IMG/VR virus record: IMGVR_UViG_2713896903_000004
Direction: 5' to 3' (one strand)
Length of the DNA stretch: 17,818 nucleotides
DNA from: a virus
Lineage: Duplodnaviria; Heunggongvirae; Uroviricota; Caudoviricetes
Every line of letters starts with the position of its first letter. Position 1 is the stretch's first letter. The notes under the pieces were generated by a model, which was not told where the DNA came from, made no database searches, and saw only the letters and a list, made by a program, of their open reading frames with translations. The translations under genes were made by a program, and so were the position numbers. Shown here in pieces: positions 479-17,674 of this stretch.

Positions 479-805
479 TTACTCCTTCGAGCTACCAAAT
501 TTGTTGCCGATTACTCTCATTGCAGCACCACGAATAGCATCGACGCCGATCAGCCCAACGCCGCCACCAATGGCAACAGAAAGTGATTTAGGCCATCCGA
601 CATACTCAAGCGCGGATGCAAAGGTCAGCGTCAGAGCGCCACAGAGCAAAATCTCGAGCGTTTTTCTCTTCCAGCCACCACCACCGCCAAAATAGGCAAT
701 GCGCAAGCCAGCCATAACGATCGACATAATCACTGCGCCCAGCGGTGTGTCTCCACGCCACCAGCTCTGGACCAACTCCAGCCAAGTATTTGGGTTATGA
801 GGCAT
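479..805 (-). CDS. Holin (class I-like; three hydrophobic segments, charged C-terminus)
   Basis: 108-aa ORF immediately upstream of the endolysin. Hydrophobic stretches LGAVIMSIVMAGLRIAYF, TLEILLCGALTLTFASALEYV and LSVAIGGGVGLIGVDAI, with a basic tail. Not lambda-S-like in sequence; the call rests on position and topology. Confidence 0.7.
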   Translation of the reverse strand: MPHNPNTWLELVQSWWRGDTPLGAVIMSIVMAGLRIAYFGGGGGWKRKTLEILLCGALTLTFASALEYVGWPKSLSVAIGGGVGLIGVDAIRGAAMRVIGNKFGSSKE

Positions 806-940
806 TTGTAGTTATCTCTCACCTCGCTGATACAGCAGGTGCAAATTGAGGAAACATCATGTACCGCAAATCAGAAGCGGAAACGTCAAAGAAGCCGAGC
901 CAATGGATAACTGCGGGATAGACTAGGCCCAACGAATCCC

Positions 941-980
941 CAGGCCCAGAAACGACAAAACCCGCTCGACGGCGGGTTTA
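941..980 (-). terminator. Rho-independent terminator for minus-strand transcripts (tR'-like, upstream of holin)
   Basis: 8-bp stem aaacccgc / gcgggttt (958-965 and 972-979) with loop tcgacg. On the minus strand it is followed by the U-rich run uuuugucguuu. Confidence 0.6.
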
Positions 981-1024
981 AGCTGTGTGGCGAAGTAACC
1001 ACTCTTAACACAATACAATACTTT

Positions 1025-1053
1025 TTGCGTACGCGTTAGTGTTTTGATAGAAT
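1025..1053 (+). promoter_or_regulatory. Candidate sigma70 promoter for the AT-rich operon (TTGCGT-17-TAGAAT)
   Basis: -35-like TTGCGT at 1025-1030 and -10-like TAGAAT at 1048-1053 with a 17-nt spacer, about 45 nt upstream of the ATG at 1097. SD-like GGGGA at 1086-1090. Motif match only. Confidence 0.3.
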
Positions 1054-1096
1054 TTTCAGCCACATAAAAATCCATTCTTATAATTGGGGATATATA

Positions 1097-2272
1097 ATGG
1101 ATATAACTTGTTTAGAATGTGGCAATGTTCTTGACGACCCAACTGTAGCTTGCGATAAATGCGGTGCCACGCCTCATGTTGTAGTGCTGGGCAAACAATC
1201 GTACTTTCCTATTGGTGCTGTAACAGCAAATCTTGAAAAAAATGATTCAAGAGCATTTGATTATCGATTAGGTGAAGTTTGGGATCTAAAAAATGAAGTC
1301 ACATCTGAATTCATAACCAGAATTGAGAAAAAATTTAGCCGAAAAAACAAATTTCATAACTTCCTAGACTCAGATCACAACCCTTCATCCATTCCTACGA
1401 TCCTAAAAAAATACATTAATAAAAATAATGAATTCATTGATTTATCTAGAGCTATAATAGAGAGGCTTAAACATAATGCTAATAACGAATCGAGAGTTGC
1501 CCAACTTCAGGGGGGGAGCGTTGTTTTCATCCACTATAAGTCTACCGAACCAGAGGATTTGGGGAAACTTCTAATCGTAATGGTTGATAAACAAAGCGCC
1601 TATGACTTTGATTCGGATAAGTTGACCCCAACAAGATTAAATCCAATTAATACCGATGCCTTACGGCAGGCTGCGATGTTCGATTTAACTTTATTCGAAG
1701 CCAGTTATCCAGAAAACAAGGGTGACTCATATGTACATTTCTTGCAAGGTAAATCTAAAAGCGATTTTTTCAAAGACTCATTAGGTTGCCGACATGATTC
1801 GGACAATAAAAGAAGCATTCAGCAATTATTCAGTGCTATAGATATTTTTGCTAGTAAAAACTCACTCGGTCGTGTACTGCGTGATACTATTGACAATGAA
1901 GTTAAATCCTTACTGGAAAAAAAATCAAAAGATAAACACGGAAATAAGTCCGTTAAGATAGAGGATATTTCAAAAATAATTGACTCATGCCTGACTGATT
2001 CACACAAATGTAAGGGAACGTTTGTCGATTTTGTTAATCTTAATGGTTTCCAGATTGACCCTCAATTTGAACCAACTCCTAAAGCAGCTGAAAGCGCGCT
2101 TACAATTGAAGTGGCAGATAACGACAATAATTTTAAGTTGAAAATAATGCGTGGAGCTATTGGAGACGAAAAGTCAAATAAGCCTGTAATTCTCACTGAC
2201 AACAAATGCGAAATTGTGATAAAATTGAGTCAGGCAAATTATGATGAACTCAAAAGATATAGAGACAGCTAA
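1097..2272 (+). CDS. Hypothetical protein with N-terminal C4 zinc ribbon; possible NdpA/YejK-like (nucleoid-associated) central region
   Basis: 391-aa ORF in an AT-rich block. CxxC...CxxC at residues 5, 8, 19, 22 (CLECGNVLDDPTVACDKCG). The central segment (GGSVVFIHYKS..., YVHFLQGKSKSDFF) resembles my recollection of the YejK/NdpA family but is unverified. Stop TAA is 2 nt before the next ATG. Confidence 0.8.
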   Translation: MDITCLECGNVLDDPTVACDKCGATPHVVVLGKQSYFPIGAVTANLEKNDSRAFDYRLGEVWDLKNEVTSEFITRIEKKFSRKNKFHNFLDSDHNPSSIPTILKKYINKNNEFIDLSRAIIERLKHNANNESRVAQLQGGSVVFIHYKSTEPEDLGKLLIVMVDKQSAYDFDSDKLTPTRLNPINTDALRQAAMFDLTLFEASYPENKGDSYVHFLQGKSKSDFFKDSLGCRHDSDNKRSIQQLFSAIDIFASKNSLGRVLRDTIDNEVKSLLEKKSKDKHGNKSVKIEDISKIIDSCLTDSHKCKGTFVDFVNLNGFQIDPQFEPTPKAAESALTIEVADNDNNFKLKIMRGAIGDEKSNKPVILTDNKCEIVIKLSQANYDELKRYRDS

Positions 2273-2274
2273 TA

Positions 2275-3489
2275 ATGACAATTGCTGATGACTTATCAAG
2301 ATTAGCGCAGATTATTAACGGAGCCTCAAGCAGAGTTGAGGGCTACTACACTGTCATAAGTCTTGAAGAAAGCATTGTTATTGTAAATAGTTCTGAAATA
2401 ATTAGACTGTTACAATCTATAGGTTATAAAAAGGCAACAACCTGCATCGAAAATAATGAAATTTGGCTAGATCGCCAAGCTTCATCTTGGGATGACGCTA
2501 TAATTTATGAGAATGTTGAGTCTTTTTGGTCTAGAGTAAACACCCAAAACGCTCTTCCGAAAAATTATATCATCGGAACGCCGTTAATACTCCCTACTTC
2601 TAAGAATGAAAGCATCGAAAAAATCCATATTTTCTTTATGTGGAAAGATATCCTTTCATTAATTGCTGATCATCATAACAGTGACTGCTCTGTCTTATTT
2701 TTCACCAATGAAGACAAAAGTTATACAGTCGAACTCACGCATTTTTTACAATATAGCGAGATTAATCGCTTATCGAACTCGTCTCTTAAATATGAAATTA
2801 TAAAGGAGCTTCTCGACACAATAAAAATCAATGATTTACACAAAAGCGAGCGCAAGCTCGTTATACGCTCAGCCATAAACGAAGTATTTAAAGCAAATGG
2901 TACGTTCAATTTCTTTGACTTGCTTAACTCTACTGAACTCGTCAGGAAAAAATATGATGAACTATATGAGATTTACACAAAGAGGTTTTCTGTAAATAAA
3001 ATTCTTAACGAACTCGATGAGAAAAATCTTGAGTTCACGAGTAAAATTAACGAATTCATATCATCTAATCAGACAAAAGCATTGACTATTCCCGGTGCAT
3101 TAATAGCAGCTGGTGGCTTAGTGAAGGCTAATGAAACAACCGAAGCAATATTGATTATCGCAGGACTTTGGATGATAAAAAAAGTCAATTACATTTCTAT
3201 TGAGATATTCAATGAAACATTCGACAACTTACGTTCTCGAGTGGAGTCCGCTTTCGATAAGTATTTAAAGTTTGAAGAAAATAAAGAAATCAAAGATAAT
3301 GCAGATAGTATTAAGAGTAGCATTACAGGTTTGATTGATAAAGCTAAAAAAAGGATGAGAACTGTTAAATATCTCGCATCAGCCATGTTTTATGGAGGCC
3401 TTATTTACGTTGGATATAAGCAGTTCCCAGTCTTTTTTGAAAAATCGGCAGTAAATCTATTTTATTTTTTATGCCATACTATAAGCTAA
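2275..3489 (+). CDS. Hypothetical protein with C-terminal hydrophobic (possibly membrane-inserting) segments
   Basis: 404-aa ORF translationally coupled to the upstream gene. Hydrophobic stretches LTIPGALIAAGGLV, AILIIAGLWMI and LASAMFYGGLIYVGY in the last third. No recognisable catalytic motif. Its last 21 nt overlap the 3' end of Q on the other strand. Confidence 0.8.
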   Translation: MTIADDLSRLAQIINGASSRVEGYYTVISLEESIVIVNSSEIIRLLQSIGYKKATTCIENNEIWLDRQASSWDDAIIYENVESFWSRVNTQNALPKNYIIGTPLILPTSKNESIEKIHIFFMWKDILSLIADHHNSDCSVLFFTNEDKSYTVELTHFLQYSEINRLSNSSLKYEIIKELLDTIKINDLHKSERKLVIRSAINEVFKANGTFNFFDLLNSTELVRKKYDELYEIYTKRFSVNKILNELDEKNLEFTSKINEFISSNQTKALTIPGALIAAGGLVKANETTEAILIIAGLWMIKKVNYISIEIFNETFDNLRSRVESAFDKYLKFEENKEIKDNADSIKSSITGLIDKAKKRMRTVKYLASAMFYGGLIYVGYKQFPVFFEKSAVNLFYFLCHTIS

Positions 3490-3825
3490 CATTGCTAAAC
3501 AGCCGTCAACAAACCCCATTGCAGTTTGCAGTTCCTTCCTAATTGTGCCATCAGAGCATTTTCTCTTCTTCGCAATAGTGCGTAATGAGATACCGATAAC
3601 AAAGTGGGCGATGATGAGCTCATATTCCTCTGGTTTATACCTTCTCAACCGAGCCACACAACTGTCTATCATGATGCCTTCATCATCATCGCACTGGAGA
3701 CGTGACTTTTTACCGTGTGGTAGAAGCCCCTTGAAACCAGCCGCTATCGGCTGCCAGTCGACACCACTATTTTCTGCTGCAGCCCAAGCCCCCCAACGAT
3801 CTAAAACTTCGTACATATCACGCAT
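3469..3825 (-). CDS. Late-gene antiterminator Q (small QuuD-type Q family)
   Basis: 118-aa ORF MRDMYEVLDRWGAWAA...IAAGFKGL...CSDGTIRKELQ matches my memory of the DLP12 QuuD-type Q family. GGAGG about 10 nt upstream of the ATG. Positioned between replication genes and the lysis cassette. Confidence 0.75.
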   Translation of the reverse strand: MRDMYEVLDRWGAWAAAENSGVDWQPIAAGFKGLLPHGKKSRLQCDDDEGIMIDSCVARLRRYKPEEYELIIAHFVIGISLRTIAKKRKCSDGTIRKELQTAMGFVDGCLAMLAYSMA

Positions 3826-4082
3826 CAGCGCAGTACCTCCTGCACCAGTTTTTCAAACTTTCCAACTTTGGTTTCCAGCTCTGCCACACAATCAACGAGC
3901 TCATCCACCGCTTTTTGTGCGCGATGTTTCGCCTGCATCAGTTCCCTGAGCGCTGGCACCATATCCCGACGAATGGCATCTTTTGTTACACCTGTTTTTT
4001 CCAGTTGTTCCGCCTGTCGCAACATTTCCTGTGCCTGTTTACGTAGTTGTTCAGGGGTAAAAGTCATTGTCTGGTTGTTCAA
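3825..4082 (-). CDS. Hypothetical coiled-coil protein (nin-region position)
   Basis: 85-aa ORF rich in E/K/R/Q heptad-like sequence. TTG start overlaps the DnaB stop (TTGA) with GGAG upstream; an alternative ATG lies at 4067. Its stop overlaps the Q start by 1 nt. Confidence 0.55.
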   Translation of the reverse strand: MNNQTMTFTPEQLRKQAQEMLRQAEQLEKTGVTKDAIRRDMVPALRELMQAKHRAQKAVDELVDCVAELETKVGKFEKLVQEVLR

Positions 4083-5470
4083 AAGAAACGCTCCATCTTA
4101 CTGCTGTCAGTTCGTTTGTTGCTGTATCTGCGCGGCTGGGGCTGCTGCATTGGGGTGGAAAGAATCTGTGCGCTTTCCTGATCCACAGGCAGAAAATGTC
4201 CGTTATAAAAACGCCGGTAAATCGTCCCCAGAGAACCGTTACGTTGTTTCGTGATATTGATTTCTGCTATGCCCCGGGCCTGCGTATCCGGGTTGTACAC
4301 TTCATCCCTGTAAAGCATCAGAATGATGTCTGCATCCGCCTCTATTTCTCCGGAATTTTTCAGGTCTGAGTTCATGGGGCGTTTATTGGGTCTGGACTCC
4401 ACACCACGGGAGAGCTGGCTCAGCGCAATTAAGGGAAAACCACCGGATTTTGCCAGGCCTTTAAGCCCCTTTGAGATTTCACCCACGGCAAGGTCATGAC
4501 GCCCCGTGGTTCGGGTTTTTATCAGCCCGAGATAATCAACCACCACCAGCGCCGTTTCCGGATATTTAATCAGGTGGTGTTTCGTTGTTGCGCATATCTC
4601 GTCAATGGTCAGGTTCGCCTGGTCCACCATCCAGATATTGCGCCCGGTCATCCGCCCCACCCCTTGTGAGAAACGCGCCCAGTCTTCGTCTTCAAAGTGA
4701 GCGACAGATTTCAGACGTGATACCGGCATTCCTCCAGCCGCAGATACCATGCGCTCACCAATCTGGATGTTCGCCATTTCCATTGTGAACAGAAGAACAC
4801 CATGCCCCTGCTCAGTCACCTTGTCGATGATATCCAGCGCCAGTTCAGTTTTGCCCATTGACGGACGAGCCGCAATAAATACCAGGTCGCCGGGCTCCAT
4901 GCCGCCTGTTTTTGCGTCCAGTTCATCAATACCGGTCATCAACGTCCTGGATTTCTCCAGCCCCTGATTCCGGCATTCAACACGCTCAACCACTTCCGGA
5001 AGCACATCATCAATATGTACCGGCTGAATAACGCCCTTTTCCGTCGACAATGAGGCCATCATGTTCTGCGCATCCTTCAGGGCATCTTCAGCTGCTTCAC
5101 AGGTATGCGCATCACGTAATTTCTGCAACGCCTCATTCAGTGTTTTTTCTGCATCACGCAATGCGGCATTGCGACGCAACGCTGCAACATAGTGCTCCAG
5201 TGAAGACTTCACCCAGGTTTTACGCCCGGTATCAGTAATCACCGGAGCAAGTTCCGGCATCTCATTGCACAGCAGCACAGGATCAATCACACCTGAAACA
5301 CGAGCCTGTCTGCAGATGCCTGTGTAGATATCCCGATACGCTCGTACAGAAAAAACGTCCGCCGGTAGTGTGGCCAGAATATCCATCACTTCATGATCTG
5401 CCCCTCGCAGAAAAAACGCGCCAATGACAGCGCCTTCCAGGTCATCGTTACGCCAGACAGGAGAAGTCAT
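4079..5470 (-). CDS. Replicative DNA helicase, DnaB family
   Basis: 463-aa ORF with Walker A ARPSMGKT and typical DnaB C-terminal RecA-like motifs (LVVVDYLGLI, ALSQLSR). ATGA overlap with the upstream loader gene. Confidence 0.9.
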   Translation of the reverse strand: MTSPVWRNDDLEGAVIGAFFLRGADHEVMDILATLPADVFSVRAYRDIYTGICRQARVSGVIDPVLLCNEMPELAPVITDTGRKTWVKSSLEHYVAALRRNAALRDAEKTLNEALQKLRDAHTCEAAEDALKDAQNMMASLSTEKGVIQPVHIDDVLPEVVERVECRNQGLEKSRTLMTGIDELDAKTGGMEPGDLVFIAARPSMGKTELALDIIDKVTEQGHGVLLFTMEMANIQIGERMVSAAGGMPVSRLKSVAHFEDEDWARFSQGVGRMTGRNIWMVDQANLTIDEICATTKHHLIKYPETALVVVDYLGLIKTRTTGRHDLAVGEISKGLKGLAKSGGFPLIALSQLSRGVESRPNKRPMNSDLKNSGEIEADADIILMLYRDEVYNPDTQARGIAEINITKQRNGSLGTIYRRFYNGHFLPVDQESAQILSTPMQQPQPRRYSNKRTDSSKMERFF

Positions 5471-6345
5471 GCTGCCATACCTCTGATACGAGAACGATAG
5501 CTGGGCCAGTTAAACGACAACCAGTTGCGTCCCCCGTCTGTGATCCTGTCGGCAATGCGGGGGCTGATGAATGCCCACAACTCTTCCGGTGAAAGGTTGC
5601 TGATCAGGATGGTGGGCAGGATGCTTTCGTACCGGGCATTGATAATTTCCTGCAAAATAGCCATTTCAGCCGCGCTGCCAAACTGAACACCAACTTCGTC
5701 GATGATCAGCAAATCCATTGACGCATAATGCTCAATAACTTCATCCGCTGTTTTTTCGCTGTCATTCCGCCAGCAGTTTTTCACAGCACGGGTAAGGCGC
5801 ATCACGTCGGTGATCTCCACACTGGCCAGATAGTTACGGATGATGTGTTTTGCCATTGATACCGCCAGATGATTTTTCCCGGTTCCGCAACTACCAGTCA
5901 TAACAAGACTGGTACCGTTCTCCAGCATATCTGGCCAGTTCTCCGCATAGCGGCGACAGGCCGCAAGATTTCTGGCTGCGTCAGGATTAACCTCCAGATA
6001 ATTATCAAACTCGCAGTCCCGAAAACGCAGGGCAATTCCGGCGTTATCAGTCAGCTCTTCCGCCTTGAGGGACGACAGCTCCATGGTCAAATCGTTGGCC
6101 TCAGCGATCAAGCAGTCAGGGCAGCATGAAATTTTTTCTCTGTCCTCGCCATTACGATCGCTCCACACCAGTATATGCGTACTGTATTTACCGTGTTTTT
6201 CGCAATATCCGCGGCCTTCACGCATCAGGCAGGAACGATAAGGCCATGGCTTTTCGCCCTTCTGAGCAAATGCAATCTCTGCCCGTAACTCATCCATTCG
6301 CGCCTGTAGTCTTTTTTGTTGTTCACGCAGGTTAAACGTCATCAT
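5467..6345 (-). CDS. DnaC-like helicase loader (IstB-type AAA+ ATPase) with N-terminal Cys cluster
   Basis: Walker A GSCGTGKNHL and Walker B LLIIDEVG. N-terminal CEKHG...CCPDC. I prefer the ATG at 6345 (SD GAGGTGA 5 nt upstream) over the track's GTG at 6354. Confidence 0.85.
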   Translation of the reverse strand: MMTFNLREQQKRLQARMDELRAEIAFAQKGEKPWPYRSCLMREGRGYCEKHGKYSTHILVWSDRNGEDREKISCCPDCLIAEANDLTMELSSLKAEELTDNAGIALRFRDCEFDNYLEVNPDAARNLAACRRYAENWPDMLENGTSLVMTGSCGTGKNHLAVSMAKHIIRNYLASVEITDVMRLTRAVKNCWRNDSEKTADEVIEHYASMDLLIIDEVGVQFGSAAEMAILQEIINARYESILPTILISNLSPEELWAFISPRIADRITDGGRNWLSFNWPSYRSRIRGMAA

Positions 6346-6355
6346 CGCTGTCACC

Positions 6356-7180
6356 TCAGAATGTCAGTTTGTCACTGGATTTACCGAATTTGTCAGACAT
6401 GGCTCCCAGGCCAGCCAGGACATCGACCTGTCGCTGTCGCCCACCTCCGGGAGCGGCTGGCTGTTGCCAGAATTCTTCGAAGTGACGATCGGGTCCAAAG
6501 AACGTCGCAGCCTGCTTCACGAACTGTGTGCCGGTATTTCCTGTAGCACGTACCCAGGCGGCATACCGCTTCACGCCATCAAGCATGGTCTCCGGTTTTA
6601 TTCCCTCCCTGAGACGGGCTTTCCAGGCTTTGAAGGCTGCCGACTTGGAATTGCCACCAGCACGTTTGGGATATTCCTGCCAGGCCTGTTCAAATTCCGG
6701 TGAATATTCCTGTCGGGCAGAGCGCGCTGGTGCAGACGCGTCAGCGGGTGCGCCAATTGTTGGTTCATTGACTGGTTCTTTGACTGGTTCAAAAGAGTGA
6801 CTGGTTCTGGGTGAATCTCCTGCACTACCCCCTGGTGCAACTCCTGCACCACCTGGTGAATTTGCTGCACTAGGTAGTGAATTATTTGCACTACCACCTG
6901 GTGAATCTTTTGCACCATCAAGACGAAGAAGATAAATATTGCTCGAGTTCCCTTTTTCACCTTTCCGGGAAACTTTTTTTACCAGTCCCGATTCACAAAG
7001 AGCCGTAATATGATTCATCACAGAACGTTTGCTAATCTCGCACTGATCAGCAATATGCTGATAGCTGGGCCAGCACTCGCCCTGATCGCTGGCATTATCA
7101 GCCAGCTTAATCAGAACCAGTTTTCGCAACGGATTTCCCACGCGAATTTTCATCGCTTTCACCATCAGCTCCATGCTCAT
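6356..7180 (-). CDS. Replication initiator (O-like; N-terminal winged-helix, repetitive linker, C-terminal domain)
   Basis: 274-aa ORF. N-terminal HTH-like region (SYQHIADQCEISKRSVMNHITALCESGLV). A low-complexity Gly/Ser/Pro/Ala linker is encoded by the iteron DNA. GGAGG upstream. Precedes the DnaC/DnaB-like genes as in lambdoid replication modules. Confidence 0.7.
   Translation of the reverse strand: MSMELMVKAMKIRVGNPLRKLVLIKLADNASDQGECWPSYQHIADQCEISKRSVMNHITALCESGLVKKVSRKGEKGNSSNIYLLRLDGAKDSPGGSANNSLPSAANSPGGAGVAPGGSAGDSPRTSHSFEPVKEPVNEPTIGAPADASAPARSARQEYSPEFEQAWQEYPKRAGGNSKSAAFKAWKARLREGIKPETMLDGVKRYAAWVRATGNTGTQFVKQAATFFGPDRHFEEFWQQPAAPGGGRQRQVDVLAGLGAMSDKFGKSSDKLTF
6761..6916. repeat. 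Iteron array inside the initiator gene (putative origin of replication)
   Basis: Three copies of TGACTGGTTC (6769-6778, 6781-6790, 6799-6808), then about five tandem ~21-bp units of the form GGTGAAT-N-TGCAC-N-CCT (6810-6916). A more AT-rich stretch follows at ~6920-6990. Confidence 0.55.
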
Positions 7181-7401
7181 AACACACCTCCCAGGCGTTT
7201 AAACATTTTTCCGGACTGAAACACCACCAGTGGGTAACTGATGGTGTAGTTACGCCCCAGTAATTCACACACGACTTTCTGGCTTTCGGTGCTGACCAGG
7301 CAAACCCGCAGAACGTGACCGTTGCTGGTGGCGAACCACTGCCCCACACGGGGGCAACGGTTGTATCGGTGATACAGGGAATTAACGACGCGGCGAATCA
7401 T
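7177..7401 (-). CDS. Hypothetical small protein (74 aa, Cys-containing) immediately upstream of the initiator gene
   Basis: ATG at 7401 with strong SD GGGAGGTG 7 nt upstream. ATGA overlaps with both the upstream 220-aa gene stop and the initiator start. The track's longer 79-aa version lacks an RBS. Confidence 0.5.
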   Translation of the reverse strand: MIRRVVNSLYHRYNRCPRVGQWFATSNGHVLRVCLVSTESQKVVCELLGRNYTISYPLVVFQSGKMFKRLGGVL

Positions 7402-8060
7402 GGGCGCACCTCCCATTGATTACGGCGGAAAGCGGTGTGACTGAGACTGGTTTCAGTTTCATGGAATGCTTCAATGCAGCTCTCGTAGTACCGCATTGTG
7501 CGCAGACTTAACCCAAGCTGAAGCATCATCAGGCCATCAAGGGTGATGTAATAACCACGCAGGGAGTCACCATAGATGTGATAAGTACCCGGTATGAAAT
7601 TGCGGGTAAAAAATTCGCGCGAGCAGTTCAGATACTCGATTTTGTCGACGATGTTCTGGTGCATGCGCTTGAAATGGCAGGCAACATGCAGGGAGAAAAT
7701 AACGGCCTTGCCGTTGACGACTTCGATTTTCAGGTATGGGGAAGTTGGGACAGTAGCCATGATGGCAGCCTCCTTGATCGGTGAAATACTTCCACCACCG
7801 GAAACGCCAATTTCGCTGGTGGTGAACTGAACGGGGTTGGCGTAACCGGTGATCAAGGAAACCGGCGCATCTTTCGATGCCCCCGCCCAGCCCACCATAA
7901 CTTTGATGTGAGCAAATGCGGACGATAAAAAAGACGCTGGCGCGTCATATATCGCCTTGATCAATTCCAGGACGCCAATCCCGGCACCCGCTTTATAAGG
8001 TGCAGAGACAGTGTAACGTCCCGAAATTGCAGAATCAATATTTAGGATTGAAACATTCAT
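7398..8060 (-). CDS. Hypothetical protein (220 aa) occupying the cII slot
   Basis: 663-nt ORF in ~50% GC DNA, co-oriented and coupled with the downstream early genes. No recognisable HTH or catalytic motif. Weak RBS at the annotated ATG. Confidence 0.6.
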   Translation of the reverse strand: MNVSILNIDSAISGRYTVSAPYKAGAGIGVLELIKAIYDAPASFLSSAFAHIKVMVGWAGASKDAPVSLITGYANPVQFTTSEIGVSGGGSISPIKEAAIMATVPTSPYLKIEVVNGKAVIFSLHVACHFKRMHQNIVDKIEYLNCSREFFTRNFIPGTYHIYGDSLRGYYITLDGLMMLQLGLSLRTMRYYESCIEAFHETETSLSHTAFRRNQWEVRP

Positions 8061-10583: not shown

Positions 10584-10711
10584 CATAATCGCCGCTTCGC
10601 CCCTCAAGGTACATGCGAACATTTTTATCAATCATTGCGGAAACAGTCTCAATATGAAAACACTTCTGAGACTCGCTATATAGCAGAACATATAAGTCAG
10701 CTGAGGAAGCC

Positions 10712-11077
10712 ATGAAAAAGTTCGAAAACATAACTGTTCTCCATGTTGATGACTTTGATTATACAAACCCGAAACTTCTCCCGAAGGTTGTAAAGGCAAT
10801 AGATGTTGCCGATATAGTGATTAGAGGAAAGAGAATTGTCAAAAACAGGCTCGCATGCACTTCAGGAGCAATGACAGAAACAACCTCACAACAAGATGAT
10901 TATGAAGGCATTTGTCTGGAGCCTGATTCATTTGCGGTAAATGTTTATCATTTATTGCATGCAACACAGGTATTACATATGTCAAGTAATCACGAAACAA
11001 AAACACTTGGCAGCGAAATTCTGAATTTTGCATGTGAATATGCAAAAGCTGCTGCCGAAAAAGAATTAGCGCAATAA
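10712..11077 (+). CDS. Hypothetical protein (121 aa)
   Basis: ORF with SD GAGGA 4 nt upstream of the ATG. Moderately AT-rich. No recognisable domain. Confidence 0.6.
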   Translation: MKKFENITVLHVDDFDYTNPKLLPKVVKAIDVADIVIRGKRIVKNRLACTSGAMTETTSQQDDYEGICLEPDSFAVNVYHLLHATQVLHMSSNHETKTLGSEILNFACEYAKAAAEKELAQ

Positions 11078-11155
11078 CAATAAATATTCCCTGAATGTTT
11101 ATTACGGTTTTATCGCCGGAGATTGTTGCAACCTTTATTCGCAGGAGATTATGTT

Positions 11156-11269
11156 ATGACTTTCCTGAAACATAAGGCATCGTATAAAACTGCCTGCCTC
11201 ATTGCACAACATGGAGATTCTTATCTTCATATAGCCAACCTGTATTTGCGCAAAGCATATGGGAGATAA
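11156..11269 (+). CDS. Small hypothetical protein (37 aa)
   Basis: Below the ORF-track size cut-off. ATG preceded by AGGAG at an 8-nt spacing. Ends 4 nt before the next start. Confidence 0.25.
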   Translation: MTFLKHKASYKTACLIAQHGDSYLHIANLYLRKAYGR

Positions 11270-11273
11270 GTCA

Positions 11274-11462
11274 ATGGAAGAAAAACAACAAAACATAACA
11301 CATAAAAAAGTAAGAGTGTTGCTAACCATTGAAAATGGTGAAGTAATTTACTCAAAACATCTGTTGGATAGTGAATTCGTTGGCTGCATGGATACATTTC
11401 TGTGGATGGCAAAAAGAGCTGGCTACACGATTATTCCACCAGCAAAGGAGCAAACATTATGA
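11274..11462 (+). CDS. Hypothetical small protein (62 aa)
   Basis: ATG at 11274 with SD GGGAG 8 nt upstream. Its stop overlaps the start of the next gene (ATGA). Confidence 0.45.
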   Translation: MEEKQQNITHKKVRVLLTIENGEVIYSKHLLDSEFVGCMDTFLWMAKRAGYTIIPPAKEQTL

Positions 11463-12040
11463 ATCATTCAGAGTTCCGACCAGAAGTTACTCCACATGGC
11501 ATAAAAATTGGCAATACAACCATTGATTATGTTGAAGCTGTGCGGCGTCTTAATGATGGTGAATACGATTATCCAAATTCACGCGGTTTAAGAATCCTTC
11601 AGTGCCTTGCCGAAGCTGATGATGCCGGATTGCTGGGGAAATTTTCCATCGATATGAAGGTTGCACAATGGCGCTGGCTGTATGTAACGATATTTATAAA
11701 CGAAGAGGAATATAAGAACGGCACCATTGATATCTCGAACGAAAACGGAACTACAGGTCGCGCAGTTATTTATAAAGGGAAATATGGTTGTATGGGTATC
11801 TACCCGGGACCAATTCGCATTGCCCTGCAAAACCATGTCGAATGGGGATTTATTGAAAAATATGGTGAAGATGAAGGTATGGGGCGAGTTCTGTTTCTCT
11901 ATCAAAAAATGCTCATCGCAGATCCTGATAATGGTTTCATTGTTTCTGCTATGGGACGCGAAGGGCTTGAACTCCTTCTGGATGAAATGATTAACGACCT
12001 GAATACTCATGGTATGCCAGAAGCGCCAGTGACACATTAA
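11459..12040 (+). CDS. Hypothetical protein (193 aa)
   Basis: ATG at 11459 with SD AAGGAG 8 nt upstream, translationally coupled to the preceding small ORF. No recognisable domain. Confidence 0.65.
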   Translation: MNHSEFRPEVTPHGIKIGNTTIDYVEAVRRLNDGEYDYPNSRGLRILQCLAEADDAGLLGKFSIDMKVAQWRWLYVTIFINEEEYKNGTIDISNENGTTGRAVIYKGKYGCMGIYPGPIRIALQNHVEWGFIEKYGEDEGMGRVLFLYQKMLIADPDNGFIVSAMGREGLELLLDEMINDLNTHGMPEAPVTH

Positions 12041-12086
12041 ATATTAAGAAGAAAATAATTCTTCCAGTTTTTTACTAACCGTTTAT

Positions 12087-12194
12087 ATGAAAAGCAACCG
12101 TGAATTAAACAGAGTAAAACTGATTTTAATCCTTGCCACAGTGGTGACACTAACTGAAATTATTATTCTCTTTATTGCGCTGTCAGTCGGTTAA
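12087..12194 (+). CDS. Possible small hydrophobic peptide (35 aa)
   Basis: MKSNRELNRVKLILILATVVTLTEIIILFIALSVG forms a single predicted TM helix. No clear SD, so speculative. Confidence 0.2.
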   Translation: MKSNRELNRVKLILILATVVTLTEIIILFIALSVG

Positions 12195-12217
12195 AAATAT
12201 CGGGATACCACAGACCA

Positions 12218-12406
12218 ATGAGACTGTATTTCACAATAGTAATTTTACTGGCAATTATCGCATGCATTTACGGATTACTCGTTCCGTTCCTTATATCCAT
12301 GAAGGATACGATAGCAGTTATTTCTGGCTTTGCACTGGCGTTTCTGACCCCGCCCTGCATTTATGCCATTTACAAGGGTCTTTCTTTCACTAAGGATAAA
12401 AGATGA
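12218..12406 (+). CDS. Small membrane protein (62 aa, two hydrophobic helices)
   Basis: Hydrophobic stretches FTIVILLAIIACIYGLLVPFLI and VISGFALAFLTPPCIYAIY. Its stop overlaps the SPFH gene start (ATGA). Confidence 0.5.
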   Translation: MRLYFTIVILLAIIACIYGLLVPFLISMKDTIAVISGFALAFLTPPCIYAIYKGLSFTKDKR

Positions 12407-13230
12407 AAAAAATTATTTTTGCTTTAGCCATTGTTCTGCCGACTATTGGCCTCGTCGGTTGCGATCGCGTTGAACCAGGTAATGTTGGCATCAAGGTAAA
12501 TAAACTGGGCGACGACAAAGGCGTCGGTGAGGTGGTCGGTGTTGGTCGCTACTGGACAGGCTGGAACACTGAAGTTTATATCTTCCCGACCTTTAAGCAG
12601 ATGAAGACCTACGATGATCCATTCAGTTTCCAGATGAGCGATGGAACAACCATTGGTTACCACATCGGAGTAGCCTACAAGGTTGATCCATCCAAAGTTA
12701 CCACGGTGTTTCAAACCTACCGCAAAGGTGTGGATGACATTACCGACACCGACCTGCGCCAGAAGATAGCAGATGCACTAAATCGGCTGGCCAGCAAAAT
12801 GACCACCGACAAATTTATCGACGGCGGCAAGTCTGAGCTGCTGGATGCAGCTCTAAAAGATATTCAGGCAGAAATGACGCCCATCGGTATTCAGGTAATG
12901 AGCCTGTCTTATGTAGGTAAACCGGAGTACCCGCCAACCGTTATCGACAGCATTAACGCCAAAGTCACGGCAAACCAGAAAACCCTGCAACGCGAGCAGG
13001 AAGTAAAACAGCGCGAAGCGGAAGCCAACATGTTGCGTGCGGAGGCTGCCGGACAGGCAGATGCAATTCGCACAAAAGCTCAGGCCGAAGCCGATGCTAT
13101 TCGTTTACGCGGTGAAGCTCTGCGCCAGAACCCCGGTGTTATGGAGCTGGAAGCCATCAATAAATGGAACGGCACACTGCCGCAATACATGACCAGCGGT
13201 GCCAATACACCATTTATCCAGGTTAAATAA
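12403..13230 (+). CDS. SPFH/band-7 (prohibitin/HflC-like) domain lipoprotein
   Basis: Signal peptide with lipobox LVGC (MKKIIFALAIVLPTIGLVGC). SPFH-like core and an Ala/Glu/Arg/Gln-rich coiled-coil tail (QREAEANMLRAEAAGQADAIRTKAQAEADAIRLRGEALRQ). SD AAGGA upstream. Confidence 0.75.
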   Translation: MKKIIFALAIVLPTIGLVGCDRVEPGNVGIKVNKLGDDKGVGEVVGVGRYWTGWNTEVYIFPTFKQMKTYDDPFSFQMSDGTTIGYHIGVAYKVDPSKVTTVFQTYRKGVDDITDTDLRQKIADALNRLASKMTTDKFIDGGKSELLDAALKDIQAEMTPIGIQVMSLSYVGKPEYPPTVIDSINAKVTANQKTLQREQEVKQREAEANMLRAEAAGQADAIRTKAQAEADAIRLRGEALRQNPGVMELEAINKWNGTLPQYMTSGANTPFIQVK

Positions 13231-15675: not shown

Positions 15676-16095
15676 ACCCGTCATGTTAACTGCGTAGAGG
15701 GCAACACTACTCTGTATGCACTGCCGAAAGCGGAAGTTGTGCTGCGCTGGCGTGAGCAAACCAGCGACGATTTCCGTTTTTGTTTTAAGTTCCCGGCAAC
15801 TATTTCGCATCAGGCTGCATTACGTCATTGCGACGATTTAGTGACAGAGTTTTTCACCCGTATGTCGCCGCTGGCACCACGCATTGGGCAATTCTGGCTG
15901 CAATTACCCGCTACCTTCGGTCCACGGGATCTGCCTGCGCTTTGGCATTTTCTCGATACTCTACCTGGCGAGTTTACCTACGGTGTGGAAGTTCGCCATC
16001 CGCTATTTTTTGCCAAAGGGGAAGAAGAACAAACGCTTAATCGCGGCTTGCATCAACGTGGCGTTAATAGGGTAATACTAATCAGACACGTTTAA
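15676..16095 (+). pseudogene. yecE: Start-less internal fragment of a host DUF72-family gene (yecE-like), bounded by two integrated elements
   Basis: The reading frame is open from directly after the int stop, with no ATG or RBS. The product (…NCVEGNTTLYALPKAEVVLRWREQTSDDFRFCFKFPATISH…) resembles my recollection of E. coli YecE. A stop follows shortly after the sequence changes character near 16075. Confidence 0.5.
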
Positions 16096-16150
16096 ATACA
16101 CCATCCAAAGCGATACAATCACACTATTAGTTTTTTATGGTGTATAAACT

Positions 16151-17674
16151 ATGAAACGTGCAATCAGTTACATCCGATTCAGTTCTGAGAAGCAATCCCG
16201 AGGTGATTCACTACGCCGACAATCGAAGTTGGTCACTGACTGGCTTAAAGCTCGTCCTGAGTATCATCTAGATGAATCTCTTACCTTCCGTGATTTGGGG
16301 AAAAGTGCTTTTAGCGGTAAGCACTTGAAAGGTGGCTTAGGCGACTTCTTAACCGCTATTGAGAAAGGGCTTGTAAGAGCTGGTGATACGCTCTTGATAG
16401 AGTCTCTTGACCGTCTGTCACGGCAAGATGTAGACCGAGCAAGTGAACTACTCAGAAACATCCTTCGCTCTGGTGTCGATGTGGTCACATTATCCGATAA
16501 TGAACACTACACAAAGGAATCTCTTAAAGACCCGTTAGCCTTGATTAAGTCAATCCTGATTATGCAACGAGCGCATGAGGAAAGTTTGAGGAAGTCTGAG
16601 CGTATACAGGCTGCATGGGATGCAAAGAAAGAAGCCGCTAAAGCTGGTATCAAGATTTCTAAGCGTTGCCCTGCATGGCTTAAGCTTAATAATGACCGTA
16701 AAAGTTTCTCTGTAATCCCTGAGAAGGTAGCGACGGTAAAGCGATGCTTCCAGCTACGGTTAGAGGGTAAGTCTATCTTGGAAATTGTCAGAACTCTTAA
16801 TAGTGAGGGACATCAGACGCTTAACCAGTACAAAGCGGGTAAATTTAGTCAGACTTCTGTGCAAGACCTTTTGAAGAATCGCTCTGTAATTGGTTATTTC
16901 ACCCCCAAAGGCTGTGAAGAAATTTCAAACTATTACCCCTCTATCATCCCTGAGACTGATTTCTACAAAGTCCAGCAACTATCATATCCTCGTTACGGTA
17001 GAAAACCTGCTTCAGATAAACCATTGAGTGTGAATCTTTTCAAGGGTGTTATCCGTTGTTCTGAATGTGGTCATGCTCTGATTATCACAGGCTTTAGCGA
17101 TACAAGGAACGGGATATATCGCTGCCCTCTTCGTAATGAAAACCGTTGCAGTGCTAAGGGTCTGTCACGTAAGCAAACTGATGGAACATTACTTGCTTTG
17201 CTCTCTCGTCTTGACCGATTTGAGAATGGTACAACGAATGCCATTGATACACTGAAGCTACACCGTGAACACATTTCAAACAATATTGAGAAGCTGGTAC
17301 AACTCTCACTTGAAGTCGAAGACCTGACCGCTATTACCAGCAAGTTAAAACAGTTAAAGGGGGAGTTATCACAGGTTGATGCTGATATTGAGAAGGAGGC
17401 ACAACGCCTTAAATCTATTGACGTGGGTTGTTTGTCTGATTGTGACTTGAGTACAAAGGCGGGAAGGATTGAAGCACAACTGATTATTCGTAGTGCTGTT
17501 AAAGAAGTTGTTTTAAACACTGCTAAACGTCGCTGTAGAGTAACTTTTCACAATGGCAAGGTGATTGACCTGTCGATAACAGAAAACCCCGCTCAGGACA
17601 TTACAGAGGCTGAAAAGTCGCTTACTGAAATTGCTGAGAAGGGTCTGTTAGATGTTGACGCCTTCCAACTGTAG
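16151..17674 (+). CDS. Large serine recombinase (resolvase-type catalytic domain, recombinase domain, zinc ribbon, coiled coil)
   Basis: 507-aa ORF. N-terminal ISYIRFSSEKQ...SLRRQ with the catalytic Ser in RFSS. Cys cluster CSECGH...CPLRNENRC. C-terminal coiled-coil region. Confidence 0.85.
   Translation: MKRAISYIRFSSEKQSRGDSLRRQSKLVTDWLKARPEYHLDESLTFRDLGKSAFSGKHLKGGLGDFLTAIEKGLVRAGDTLLIESLDRLSRQDVDRASELLRNILRSGVDVVTLSDNEHYTKESLKDPLALIKSILIMQRAHEESLRKSERIQAAWDAKKEAAKAGIKISKRCPAWLKLNNDRKSFSVIPEKVATVKRCFQLRLEGKSILEIVRTLNSEGHQTLNQYKAGKFSQTSVQDLLKNRSVIGYFTPKGCEEISNYYPSIIPETDFYKVQQLSYPRYGRKPASDKPLSVNLFKGVIRCSECGHALIITGFSDTRNGIYRCPLRNENRCSAKGLSRKQTDGTLLALLSRLDRFENGTTNAIDTLKLHREHISNNIEKLVQLSLEVEDLTAITSKLKQLKGELSQVDADIEKEAQRLKSIDVGCLSDCDLSTKAGRIEAQLIIRSAVKEVVLNTAKRRCRVTFHNGKVIDLSITENPAQDITEAEKSLTEIAEKGLLDVDAFQL

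Follow-up and report, generated by a model that had tools for sequence, protein, structure and literature searches.

The AT-rich block at positions 1000–3489 of the window is almost certainly a copy of the anti-phage system DS-1, and defensive. The window is the whole 17,818-nt stretch of Caudoviricetes DNA analyzed (IMG/VR record IMGVR_UViG_2713896903_000004) and belongs to a prophage at the yecE site that has DnaB/DnaC-type replication genes. The block has two plus-strand ORFs, and comparisons support its identification as horizontally acquired cargo in the moron slot between the Q and holin genes. The features are as follows.

479–805, minus strand: lambda-family holin, which opens the lysis cassette and borders the slot on its left (PF05106, 5.7e-25; matching E. 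coli records carry the annotation "phage holin, lambda family")
806–1045, minus strand: conserved non-coding leader ahead of the holin gene, common to prophages and phages with differing cargo (alignment)
1044–1096, plus strand: cassette-specific upstream region (consensus match only)
1097–2272, plus strand: ORF1, DS-1A, nucleoid-associated anti-phage protein of the NA37/YejK family, 391 aa (NF053868; PF04245, 5.5e-24; PDB 9be2 YejK, 4e-10)
1109–1162, plus strand: four-cysteine zinc ribbon at the N-terminus of DS-1A, CxxC...CxxC, residues 5–22 (alignment; weak PF13240 match)
2275–3489, plus strand: ORF2, DS-1B, anti-phage protein and putative effector, 404 aa (NF053869; phrog_5023; AF2 model pLDDT 85.5)
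2275–2928, plus strand: N-terminal alpha/beta domain of DS-1B, residues 1 to ~218–220, mildly acidic
2932–3189, plus strand: most conserved part of DS-1B, residues 220–305 (invariant alignment columns)
3391–3483, plus strand: C-terminal hydrophobic helices of DS-1B, residues 373–403 (alignment and AF2 model; YLASAMFYGGLIYVGY...NLFYFL)
3469–3825, minus strand: Q antiterminator, phage 82-type family (PF06530, 2.1e-47)

The DS-1 reference proteins are DS-1A WP_000355468.1 and DS-1B WP_000150292.1 (DeWeirdt et al., Science 2026, PMC13092281). ORF1 is identical to the former at 390 of 391 residues, with one conservative difference at residue 123 (R here, K there). ORF2 is identical to the latter over all the residues printed in Table S8 (399/399). 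Both ORFs pass the NCBIfam equivalog models for the system: ORF1 has 452.3 bits with NF053868 (DS1_1_antiphage, cut-off 330; model positions 3–369 of 369) and ORF2 has 375.2 bits with NF053869 (DS1_2_antiphage, cut-off 315; model positions 1–337 of 337). The A and B genes are co-directional, in that order, and within the gap criterion for one transcription unit (≤30 bp). Newer RefSeq records name them "nucleoid-associated anti-phage protein" and "anti-phage protein".

An earlier note on this DNA had considered the block an undescribed module. This part of the note does not hold, as both curated DS-1 models are passed and DS-1 is already named, assayed and present in annotation pipelines; for the same reason the window offers little new biology. 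The PADLOC search suggested there gives no match to either protein in any family of PADLOC v2 (2023; E up to 0.1); the NCBIfam models are positive for both. The PADLOC v2 library predates DS-1, so older tools would miss the system. An alternative in which the low G+C simply marks an accessory phage gene with a structural or metabolic role is rejected, given the published assay and the assigned families.

DS-1 comes from the DefensePredictor study and is experimentally validated in E. coli (DeWeirdt et al., Science 2026, PMC13092281). It was assayed in MG1655 from a low-copy plasmid with its native promoter, and is active in this non-lysogen (PMC13092281). The -log10 EOP values in Table S7 are 7.6 for Bas1, 2.7 for Bas26, 1.7 for Bas3, 1.7 for T3, 1.0 for T5 and 0.9 for T7 (PMC13092281). 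With Bas1, plating is down more than 10^7-fold and the block is complete, with the lowest dilution plaque-free; T4 is absent from the phages with a recorded effect in that table (PMC13092281). On the YejK domain, the paper only lists it among those newly validated in defense (PMC13092281). The plaque assays represent the reference allele only, and the window proteins are 99.7–100% identical to those assayed, which bears out the proposal that the block is a defense module.

Position, composition and boundaries of the cassette

The G+C content is 34.8% at window positions 1000–3489, compared with 51.5% at 1–999 and 51.2% at 3490–8000. GC3 values are 0.31 (ORF1) and 0.33 (ORF2) versus 0.43–0.56 in the flanking phage genes. 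The contrast that had been judged by eye, about one-third G+C against half in the flanks, with A/T-ending codons, is thus present when computed. The ORFs are tightly coupled, as had been noted: the ORF1 stop codon TAA is at 2270–2272, and after a 2-nt spacing the ORF2 start codon ATG is at 2275. Q is on one side of the pair and the holin gene on the other, both on the minus strand, which places the cassette in the Q-to-lysis interval on the strand opposite the late genes, where the earlier note had located it. The 3' ends of ORF2 and Q overlap by 21 nt. From this composition and position, a reader of the sequence by itself had correctly guessed a defense module, with a putative sensor and membrane effector.

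Comparison with related prophages places the left boundary of the cargo at approximately 1046–1052 and the right boundary at approximately 3503, within the final ~12 codons of Q. Matches from records that do not carry DS-1 stop at ~1045–1052. The final Q codons adjoin the cargo or run into it, and a comparison of the C-terminal tails shows them changing together with cargo type. Prophage comparisons also reveal that cargo is exchanged in the stretch from Q to the conserved holin leader. This swap site contains DS-1, PDC-M53, a PD-Lambda-1-like GIY-YIG protein, a TIGR04255 triplet, an uncharacterized triplet or a porin; PD-Lambda-1-like and PDC-M53 are defense candidates that occupy the slot in other prophages. 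As a swap site, the slot is a cheap place to seek further defense genes.

The leader at 806–1045 is also found in phage SfII and a lambda-like phage. It has a terminator-like hairpin (positions 958–979) followed by a T-run, and is the likely position of a putative late promoter and leader. A search for the late promoter pR' found no minus-strand sigma-70-like match near the Q end or in the conserved leader, and an Rfam search at gathering thresholds found only C4 and isrK, both away from the Q-leader region. The sole candidate for a cassette promoter is a weak sigma-70-like match, TTGATA-16-AAAAAT, at positions 1044–1071 (9/12), and such sites are no more common in the region than in shuffles (12 found, 9.7 expected). 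A GGGG Shine-Dalgarno-like motif is at 1086–1089, ahead of ORF1. As to a promoter of the cassette's own, the native upstream region is active in the published clone, but the only match here is weak and not above chance.

In an unlikely reading, the invariant placement of the cargo, which is convergent with Q, overlaps it and supplies its last ~12 codons, would be a built-in off-switch. If this is correct, early transcription through Q on prophage induction would run antisense over the cassette and silence the abortive system. The silencing of DS-1 would then spare the resident prophage from killing its own lytic cycle.

Properties and pairing of DS-1A and DS-1B

Residues ~64–376 of DS-1A belong to the same family as E. 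coli YejK (NA37), a housekeeping nucleoid-associated DNA clamp, and the invariant motifs HY, DLT and FF..G are shared. YejK is a dimeric clamp that encircles double-stranded DNA and is sequence-nonspecific (PMC11229321). DS-1A differs in that it is prophage-encoded, has DS-1B as a partner and carries an added N-terminal zinc ribbon; its identity to MG1655 YejK is 20%. In the alignment the ribbon is kept in all DS-1A-type homologues and is missing from YejK. The YejK pore arginines and lysines are only partly matched in DS-1A, as read from an alignment at 20% identity. DS-1A is below the cut-off of the YejK equivalog model NF001557 (82.1 bits versus 341). A transduced host yejK gene as the origin of ORF1 is ruled out by the 20% identity and this failed cut-off.

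The N-terminal domain of DS-1B (220 residues) has a net charge of -8 and a pI of 5.2, and is net negative in 46/46 homologues. A profile search with DS-1B against PDB sequences found nothing, i.e., the N-terminal domain is without a solved structural neighbor there. Residues 220–305 form a long helix and then a small-residue-rich hydrophobic helical hairpin (ALTIPGALIAAGGLV / AILIIAGLWMI). The AF2 model has helices at 220–268, 271–284 and 288–331, and the hydropathy peak is at residue 291. Hydrophobic helices are at 269–303 and 373–403, with a single 19-residue window above a Kyte-Doolittle mean of 1.4. With one such window and continuous long helices in the model, constitutive membrane insertion of DS-1B is not established. 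In an unlikely reading, the helical bundle would bury the hydrophobic hairpin as in alpha-pore-forming toxins and the protein would be soluble until triggered. The pair had been described as a soluble nucleic-acid-binding protein and a partner with a hydrophobic C-terminus; the NA37/YejK match of ORF1, and the alpha/beta N-domain and long helices in the ORF2 model, agree with this description.

In all 6 of the loci retrieved by exact-protein look-up, a DS-1A-type gene is immediately upstream of a DS-1B-type gene, and the same order is present in all 12 species-level genome loci, with identity as low as 26% (18/18 loci in total). Neighbors of the pair include AbiEii, AAA_21 and BstA genes, and some loci are on integrase-bounded islands, distant from Q and the lysis genes. 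DS-1 was not found in 50,697 isolated phage genomes, searched at both the DNA and the protein level. The pair turns up only in prophages and on a few plasmids, and half of those plasmids have an adjoining Q gene. A separate profile search gave 776 representative clusters, which carry no taxonomy. The relatives of DS-1B that are assignable to an organism are nearly all from Gammaproteobacteria; the exceptions are a weak partial match on a Methylobacter plasmid and one short contig in the bin of a Lactobacillales MAG.

Proposed mechanism and alternatives

Type II PANGU consists of a nucleoid-associated protein (NAP), Pag2A, and an effector, Pag2B, whose acidic N-domain mimics DNA and whose C-terminus is transmembrane (Li et al., bioRxiv 10.64898/2026.04.06.716658). 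On T4 infection the NAP leaves the nucleoid, where DNA is damaged, and binds the acidic N-domain of the effector (KD 19 nM); the system requires both genes, and the outcome is abortive-infection-like, with growth arrest at high MOI (10.64898/2026.04.06.716658). By analogy, DS-1A would be a DNA-state sensor and DS-1B a membrane effector, an assignment that could fall either way. The sensor role is suggested by the NA37 match, the match to YejK structure 9be2 and the behavior of the type II PANGU NAP. The effector role is suggested by a layout like that of PANGU, the consistently negative N-domain, and the helix and hairpin being the most conserved part of the protein. Functional coupling of A and B is implied by their adjacency in both sets of loci, with AbiEii, AAA_21 and BstA genes among the neighbors. 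The assignment is weakened by the incomplete match to the YejK pore residues, by the mild acidity of the DS-1B N-domain and by the single hydropathy window above threshold.

DS-1A would be a DNA clamp of the YejK type, supplemented by a zinc ribbon, that sits on the host nucleoid, and phage damage to or degradation of host DNA would release it. The released protein would bind the mildly acidic N-terminal domain of DS-1B, and the C-terminal helical hydrophobic part of DS-1B would then pass to a membrane-damaging state. The infected cell would no longer support phage growth, i.e., abortive infection. The whole explanation, in which DS-1 is cargo in the Q-holin slot and acts by nucleoid release and a membrane effector, is considered fairly probable.

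Three alternatives differ from this in what is sensed, in how the defense works or in what the pair is for. DS-1A may sense a specific phage molecule (a protein, or incoming or replicating DNA), perhaps via the zinc ribbon, with DS-1B still the effector. T4, T5 and T7 all degrade host DNA, yet the DS-1 effects on them are weak or unrecorded, and the set of affected phages is narrow, with effects of uneven size (above 10^7-fold for Bas1, 8–50-fold for T3, T5 and T7, and none recorded for T4). The presence of the four-cysteine ribbon in every DS-1A-type protein and its absence from YejK are also consistent with a specific trigger. However, expression level or phage counter-defenses could explain the uneven range, and the only mechanistic data on NAP-based defense indicate nucleoid release; a specific trigger is rather unlikely. 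In a direct defense, DS-1A would clamp or coat phage DNA and DS-1B would tether or sequester the complex at the membrane, blocking replication or transcription of the invader while the cell survives. YejK-type proteins do encircle double-stranded DNA with no sequence preference, DS-1B combines a soluble domain with putative membrane helices, and the Bas1 block is complete, with zero plaques at the lowest dilution. But a non-specific clamp has no obvious means of discriminating self from non-self DNA, and the related PANGU systems behave like abortive infection, with cells that stop growing when the MOI is high; direct defense is quite improbable.

The pair could also mainly serve the prophage, through regulation of prophage genes by the NAP or as a membrane protein of lysis timing, with resistance a side effect of plasmid expression. 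The cassette adjoins the lysis genes and overlaps Q, and a precedent for regulation of a mobile element is the NA37 paralogue NdpA2, which is reported to regulate transfer of the PAPI-1 element in Pseudomonas aeruginosa (PMC8565334). Against this, the low-copy clone defends from its native promoter, the pair is also present where Q and lysis genes are not nearby (beside AbiE, BstA and AAA_21, and on integrase-bounded islands), and the slot holds the PD-Lambda-1-like and PDC-M53 defense candidates in other prophages. A service to the prophage is very improbable as the main role.

Relation to known systems

The window has the same genes, order and 2-nt spacing as known DS-1, and the Q-DS-1-holin arrangement is also present in other E. 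coli prophages. Besides residue 123 of DS-1A, the prophage backbone differs: the TUM1226 example is at the thrW/proA site and the prophage of the window is at yecE. The classical morons of the Q-S interval are stx in 933W-type phages and the lc/nmpC porin in PA-2 and DLP12. They occupy the same slot, and the porin gene is likewise antisense to the holin, just upstream of the same conserved leader. They encode a toxin or a porin, whereas the cargo here is a defense system.

DS-1 resembles type II PANGU in architecture: each is a bicistronic defense operon in which a YejK-like NAP gene precedes a gene whose product has an acidic soluble N-domain, mildly so in DS-1B, and hydrophobic helices toward its C-terminus. 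One characterized PANGU example is also from E. coli, a uropathogenic strain, and restricts T4. There are several differences. Type II PANGU restricts T4 or Bas34, while DS-1 activity is recorded on Bas1, Bas3, Bas26, T3, T5 and T7; since T4 is restricted by the former and has no recorded DS-1 effect, the trigger or the system may differ. Expression was from the native promoter for DS-1 and by IPTG induction for PANGU. Cluster 2 of the PANGU preprint is said to span phyla, in contrast to the largely gammaproteobacterial DS-1B relatives. The preprint has no mention of a zinc ribbon in the NAP, and DS-1A has one. A combined reading, in which DS-1 would be a lineage apart from characterized PANGU (a zinc-ribbon NAP sensor, an effector N-domain of unsolved fold and a buried hydrophobic hairpin) and its placement would act as an off-switch, is unlikely. 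Concrete targets for examining in DS-1 the nucleoid-release model proposed for PANGU are the strict A-B pairing, the novel N-domain of DS-1B and the zinc ribbon conserved in DS-1A.

The cassette and its identification as DS-1

The segment at window positions 1000–3489 has a G+C content of 34.8%, compared with 51.5% on its left (1–999) and 51.2% on its right (3490–8000). Third-position G+C is 0.31 in ORF1 and 0.33 in ORF2, versus 0.43–0.56 in adjoining phage genes, in agreement with the AT-rich block and A/T-ending codons described in an earlier note on this DNA. The two reading frames are also coupled as described there; the junction reads ...AGC TAA TA ATG..., with the stop codon at 2270–2272 and the start codon at 2275. 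ORF2 and Q are convergent and overlap by 21 nt at the 3' end of Q.

Genes of the cassette and its flanks
479–805, - strand: lambda-family holin (PF05106, 6e-25)
1097–2272, + strand: ORF1, 391 aa
2275–3489, + strand: ORF2, 404 aa
3469–3825, - strand: Q antiterminator (PF06530, 2e-47)

A promoter belonging to the cassette had also been suggested as possible, and here alone the sequence does not bear out what the note observed. Positions 1044–1071 hold the sole candidate, which is weak (9/12), and promoter-like sites in the cassette region are no more frequent than in shuffled sequence.

ORF1 is assigned to NA37 (Pfam, 5.5e-24), the family of nucleoid-associated proteins (NAPs) that includes YejK, and the solved structure of YejK from E. 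coli, 9be2, is also a match (4e-10). The protein is not YejK itself (82 bits against a YejK cut-off of 341) but a distant YejK paralogue. Both proteins pass curated NCBIfam thresholds: ORF1 scores 452 bits against NF053868 ("nucleoid-associated anti-phage protein, DS1_1", cut-off 330) and ORF2 scores 375 bits against NF053869 ("anti-phage protein, DS1_2", cut-off 315). PADLOC v2 (2023) gave no match to either protein.

The cassette belongs to DS-1 on three counts, namely sequence, gene order and curated family thresholds, and the system is therefore already known. DS-1 (working id D390) was reported by DeWeirdt et al. ("DefensePredictor", Science 2026, PMC13092281) and consists of WP_000355468.1 and WP_000150292.1 from E. 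coli GCF_003886375, with sequences in the supplementary tables. ORF1 differs from DS-1A at one of 391 residues (position 123, R in the window and K in the tested protein), and ORF2 is identical to DS-1B at all 399 residues printed in the supplement. Newer RefSeq names for the pair are "nucleoid-associated anti-phage protein" and "anti-phage protein". The loss of phage plating conferred by DS-1 (-log10 EOP; Table S7, PMC13092281) is 7.6 for Bas1, 2.7 for Bas26 with small plaques, 1.7 for both Bas3 and T3, 1.0 for T5, 0.9 for T7, and about 0 for SECphi27, where only small plaques are seen; T4 is absent from the DS-1 rows. The main text of that paper touches on DS-1 only where the YejK domain enters its count of newly validated defence domains (PMC13092281). 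The earlier proposal of an undescribed defence module is largely right as to the kind of module, the defence phenotype being that of the reference allele, but wrong as to "undescribed", for the module already has a name.

Protein features and conservation of the pair

DS-1A has an N-terminal zinc ribbon (CxxC...CxxC, residues 5–22) that is present in five of five aligned DS-1A-type sequences and absent from YejK. From these alignments it appears to be a family signature, a modest addition of this analysis. The remainder of the protein has 20% identity to YejK. Mutation of the basic residues lining the YejK pore, R173/R176/K177 and R276/R280/K284, abolishes DNA binding; the first cluster aligns with a GKSKS loop in closer homologues, a match that is uncertain at 20% identity.

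The AF2 model of DS-1B (pLDDT 85.5) displays an alpha/beta domain (residues 1–218) followed by long helices at 220–268, 271–284, 288–331, 337–383 and 385–403. The best-conserved stretch of the family, residues 226–285 (KKYDELYEIYTKRFSVNK...SSNQTKALTIPGALIAAGGL), is a long helix leading into a hydrophobic hairpin rich in small residues, and a second hydrophobic region is found at the C-terminus (373–403). The hydrophobic C-terminal segments previously noted are present as helices in the model; membrane insertion is predicted from simple hydropathy and modelled helices. The N-domain has a net charge of -8 and a pI of 5.2, and in each of the 46 homologues aligned it is net negative. Structural matches to the full model are generic helical bundles only, and the N-domain, also a modest addition, represents an unsolved fold.

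The cargo proper (1053–3468) is found in 106 of 5,426 complete E. coli genomes, always at full length and with at least 99.7% identity, yet the surrounding prophage backbones differ. In strain TUM1226 it lies between Q and holin in a thrW/proA-site prophage whose terminase is P27-type and whose tail is sheathed; in the window, the backbone belongs to a prophage at the yecE site that carries DnaB/DnaC-type replication genes. This combination suggests that a single DS-1 allele spread recently via recombination between prophages. DS-1 is present on six plasmid records, three with an adjoining Q gene, and was not found in isolated phage genomes at the DNA or protein level. PHROGs contains both proteins (phrog_3767 and phrog_5023). 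The window as a whole has no counterpart in complete E. coli genomes, the best match having 67% coverage at about 93% identity.

The 69 close clusters of DS-1B all lack Pfam domains and come almost exclusively from Enterobacterales, with a few from elsewhere in the Gammaproteobacteria. When 1.84 billion representatives were searched with a profile, 776 clusters matched at E ≤ 1e-3, of which 370 reached E ≤ 1e-10; among the 150 of 776 matches listed, nearly all are ~380–450 aa. At every locus examined a DS-1A-type gene (~390 aa) is directly upstream of the DS-1B-type gene. These comprise six loci from an exact-protein look-up (Pseudoteredinibacter, Pseudoalteromonas, two Serratia and two Yersinia) and 12 further species-level genome loci, of which one ends at a contig edge and one (Photorhabdus) appears frameshifted. 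The pairing is strictly kept down to 26% identity. In Photorhabdus viridis (locus L024, 5594–6972) the DS-1A-like and DS-1B-like frames are in several pieces, so that the copy resembles a pseudogene pair in decay. Genes adjoining DS-1-type pairs include AbiEii/DUF6088, an AAA_21 ATPase, BstA and integrases. Homologues in Yersinia and Pseudescherichia (38–42% identical) also occupy the holin–Q slot, convergent with Q.

The Q–holin interval and other features of the window

Prophages that have the same holin and its ~240-bp leader but lack DS-1 diverge from the window at ~1045–1052, and those sharing the Q-to-integrase region diverge at ~3503. Comparison of these positions (806–1052 and 3469–3503; loci L002, L003, L010, L011, L025 and L026) indicates that cargo is swapped in the interval bounded by Q and the conserved holin leader.

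Alternative cargos in the interval
PDC-M53A/B pair, strain S19-651 (PADLOC, 1.6e-32 and 1.8e-54)
Pair with the gene sizes and layout of PDC-M53, same place, functional phage SfII
TIGR04255 protein with two uncharacterised proteins
Three uncharacterised proteins
GIY-YIG protein, same strand as Q (strong PD-Lambda-1 match, 2e-89)
Porin gene, lambda-like phage

Among the cargos, the GIY-YIG protein is the only one not antisense to the holin; the uncharacterised triplets could be defence systems. The final ~12 codons of Q vary together with cargo type (...GFVDGCLAMLAYSMA with DS-1; ...GVIEGILLIIKPL in S19-651, which has PDC-M53, and in SfII), which places the right-hand recombination junction inside Q, with each cargo supplying its own Q tail. 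Along with this junction, the pairing at low identity, the reuse of the slot by divergent variants and the cargo catalogue are further modest additions.

In every example the cargo end overlaps the Q stop codon or falls within about 30 nt of it, and for this reason the late promoter is probably within the conserved leader (806–1045, - strand). No convincing match to a sigma-70-type late promoter (pR') was found in the leader or beside Q. Thousands of E. coli genomes, as well as phages SfII and SfIV, conserve this leader, which has a strong terminator-like hairpin (958–979) with a T-run after it.

Other features of the window
7398–8060: mechanically called ORF (Ash and Rha matches)
7815–7902, - strand: C4 antisense RNA (Rfam, 82 bits)
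7927–8003, - strand: isrK Hfq-binding RNA (Rfam, 64 bits)
10712–11077: ORF, phrog_5451
11402–12040: ORF, phrog_1515
12403–13230: SPFH/Band-7 membrane protein gene, early-left region, conserved in related yecE-site prophages
15739–17674: region with host yecE (DUF72), truncated at about 16076–16095, beside the prophage integrase
16151–17674: large serine recombinase gene

As C4 and isrK are both within the called ORF, its true start is probably further downstream. The arrangement resembles the P1/P7-type antirepressor control module, here in a lambdoid prophage. A second low-G+C stretch (10600–12400, 36–38%) lies beyond the cI-like repressor and a CII-like HTH gene; its two ORFs have no Pfam or PADLOC match, and it may be another moron. 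The truncated yecE followed by the recombinase gene suggests a second integrative element.

Proposed mechanism and comparison with PANGU

PANGU operons are bicistronic and pair a YejK-like NAP with an effector (Li et al., bioRxiv April 2026, 10.64898/2026.04.06.716658). The type I NAP clamps long DNA and departs the nucleoid upon T4 EndoII-dependent genome degradation; once freed, it activates a toxSAS enzyme by binding that enzyme's acidic DNA-mimicking domain. The type II partner has an acidic N-terminal DNA-mimicking domain and a C-terminal transmembrane domain. A type II example from E. coli needs both genes, each non-toxic alone, and its cultures show abortive-infection-like behaviour; the NAP-GFP fusion leaves the nucleoid upon T4 infection, the N-domain and the NAP bind each other (KD 19 nM), and the authors state that the mode of effector activation is unknown (all from 10.64898/2026.04.06.716658).

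Since DS-1 appears to have the same architecture, a mechanism of this type is the most likely one, with DS-1A as reporter of host DNA and DS-1B as membrane effector. DS-1A would bind the nucleoid and report the state of host DNA; infection would release it, and the free protein would bind DS-1B and switch it on. Activated DS-1B would then act on the membrane, with damage and an abortive outcome. These steps are inferred; the analysis and the published assay show the identity, the defence phenotype of the reference allele, the family membership, the conserved pairing and the domain layout. Less likely explanations are that DS-1 directly senses some component of the phage, with the zinc ribbon of DS-1A as a possible sensor, that it sequesters DNA in a non-abortive mechanism, or that its role is primarily to serve the prophage. 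It is improbable that DS-1 is a distinct NAP–effector lineage with a soluble-to-membrane effector and is, in addition, silenced by the convergent Q overlap during induction of the resident prophage.

The preferred host-DNA reporter mechanism depends on the PANGU analogy, which is weakened by the only mildly acidic N-domain of DS-1B and by the simple hydropathy and helix prediction that supports membrane insertion. A further weak point is that no effect on T4, whose infection moves the type II NAP off the nucleoid, is recorded for DS-1. The likeness to type II PANGU, compared by description, is in the apparently shared architecture, and DS-1 may belong to that type.
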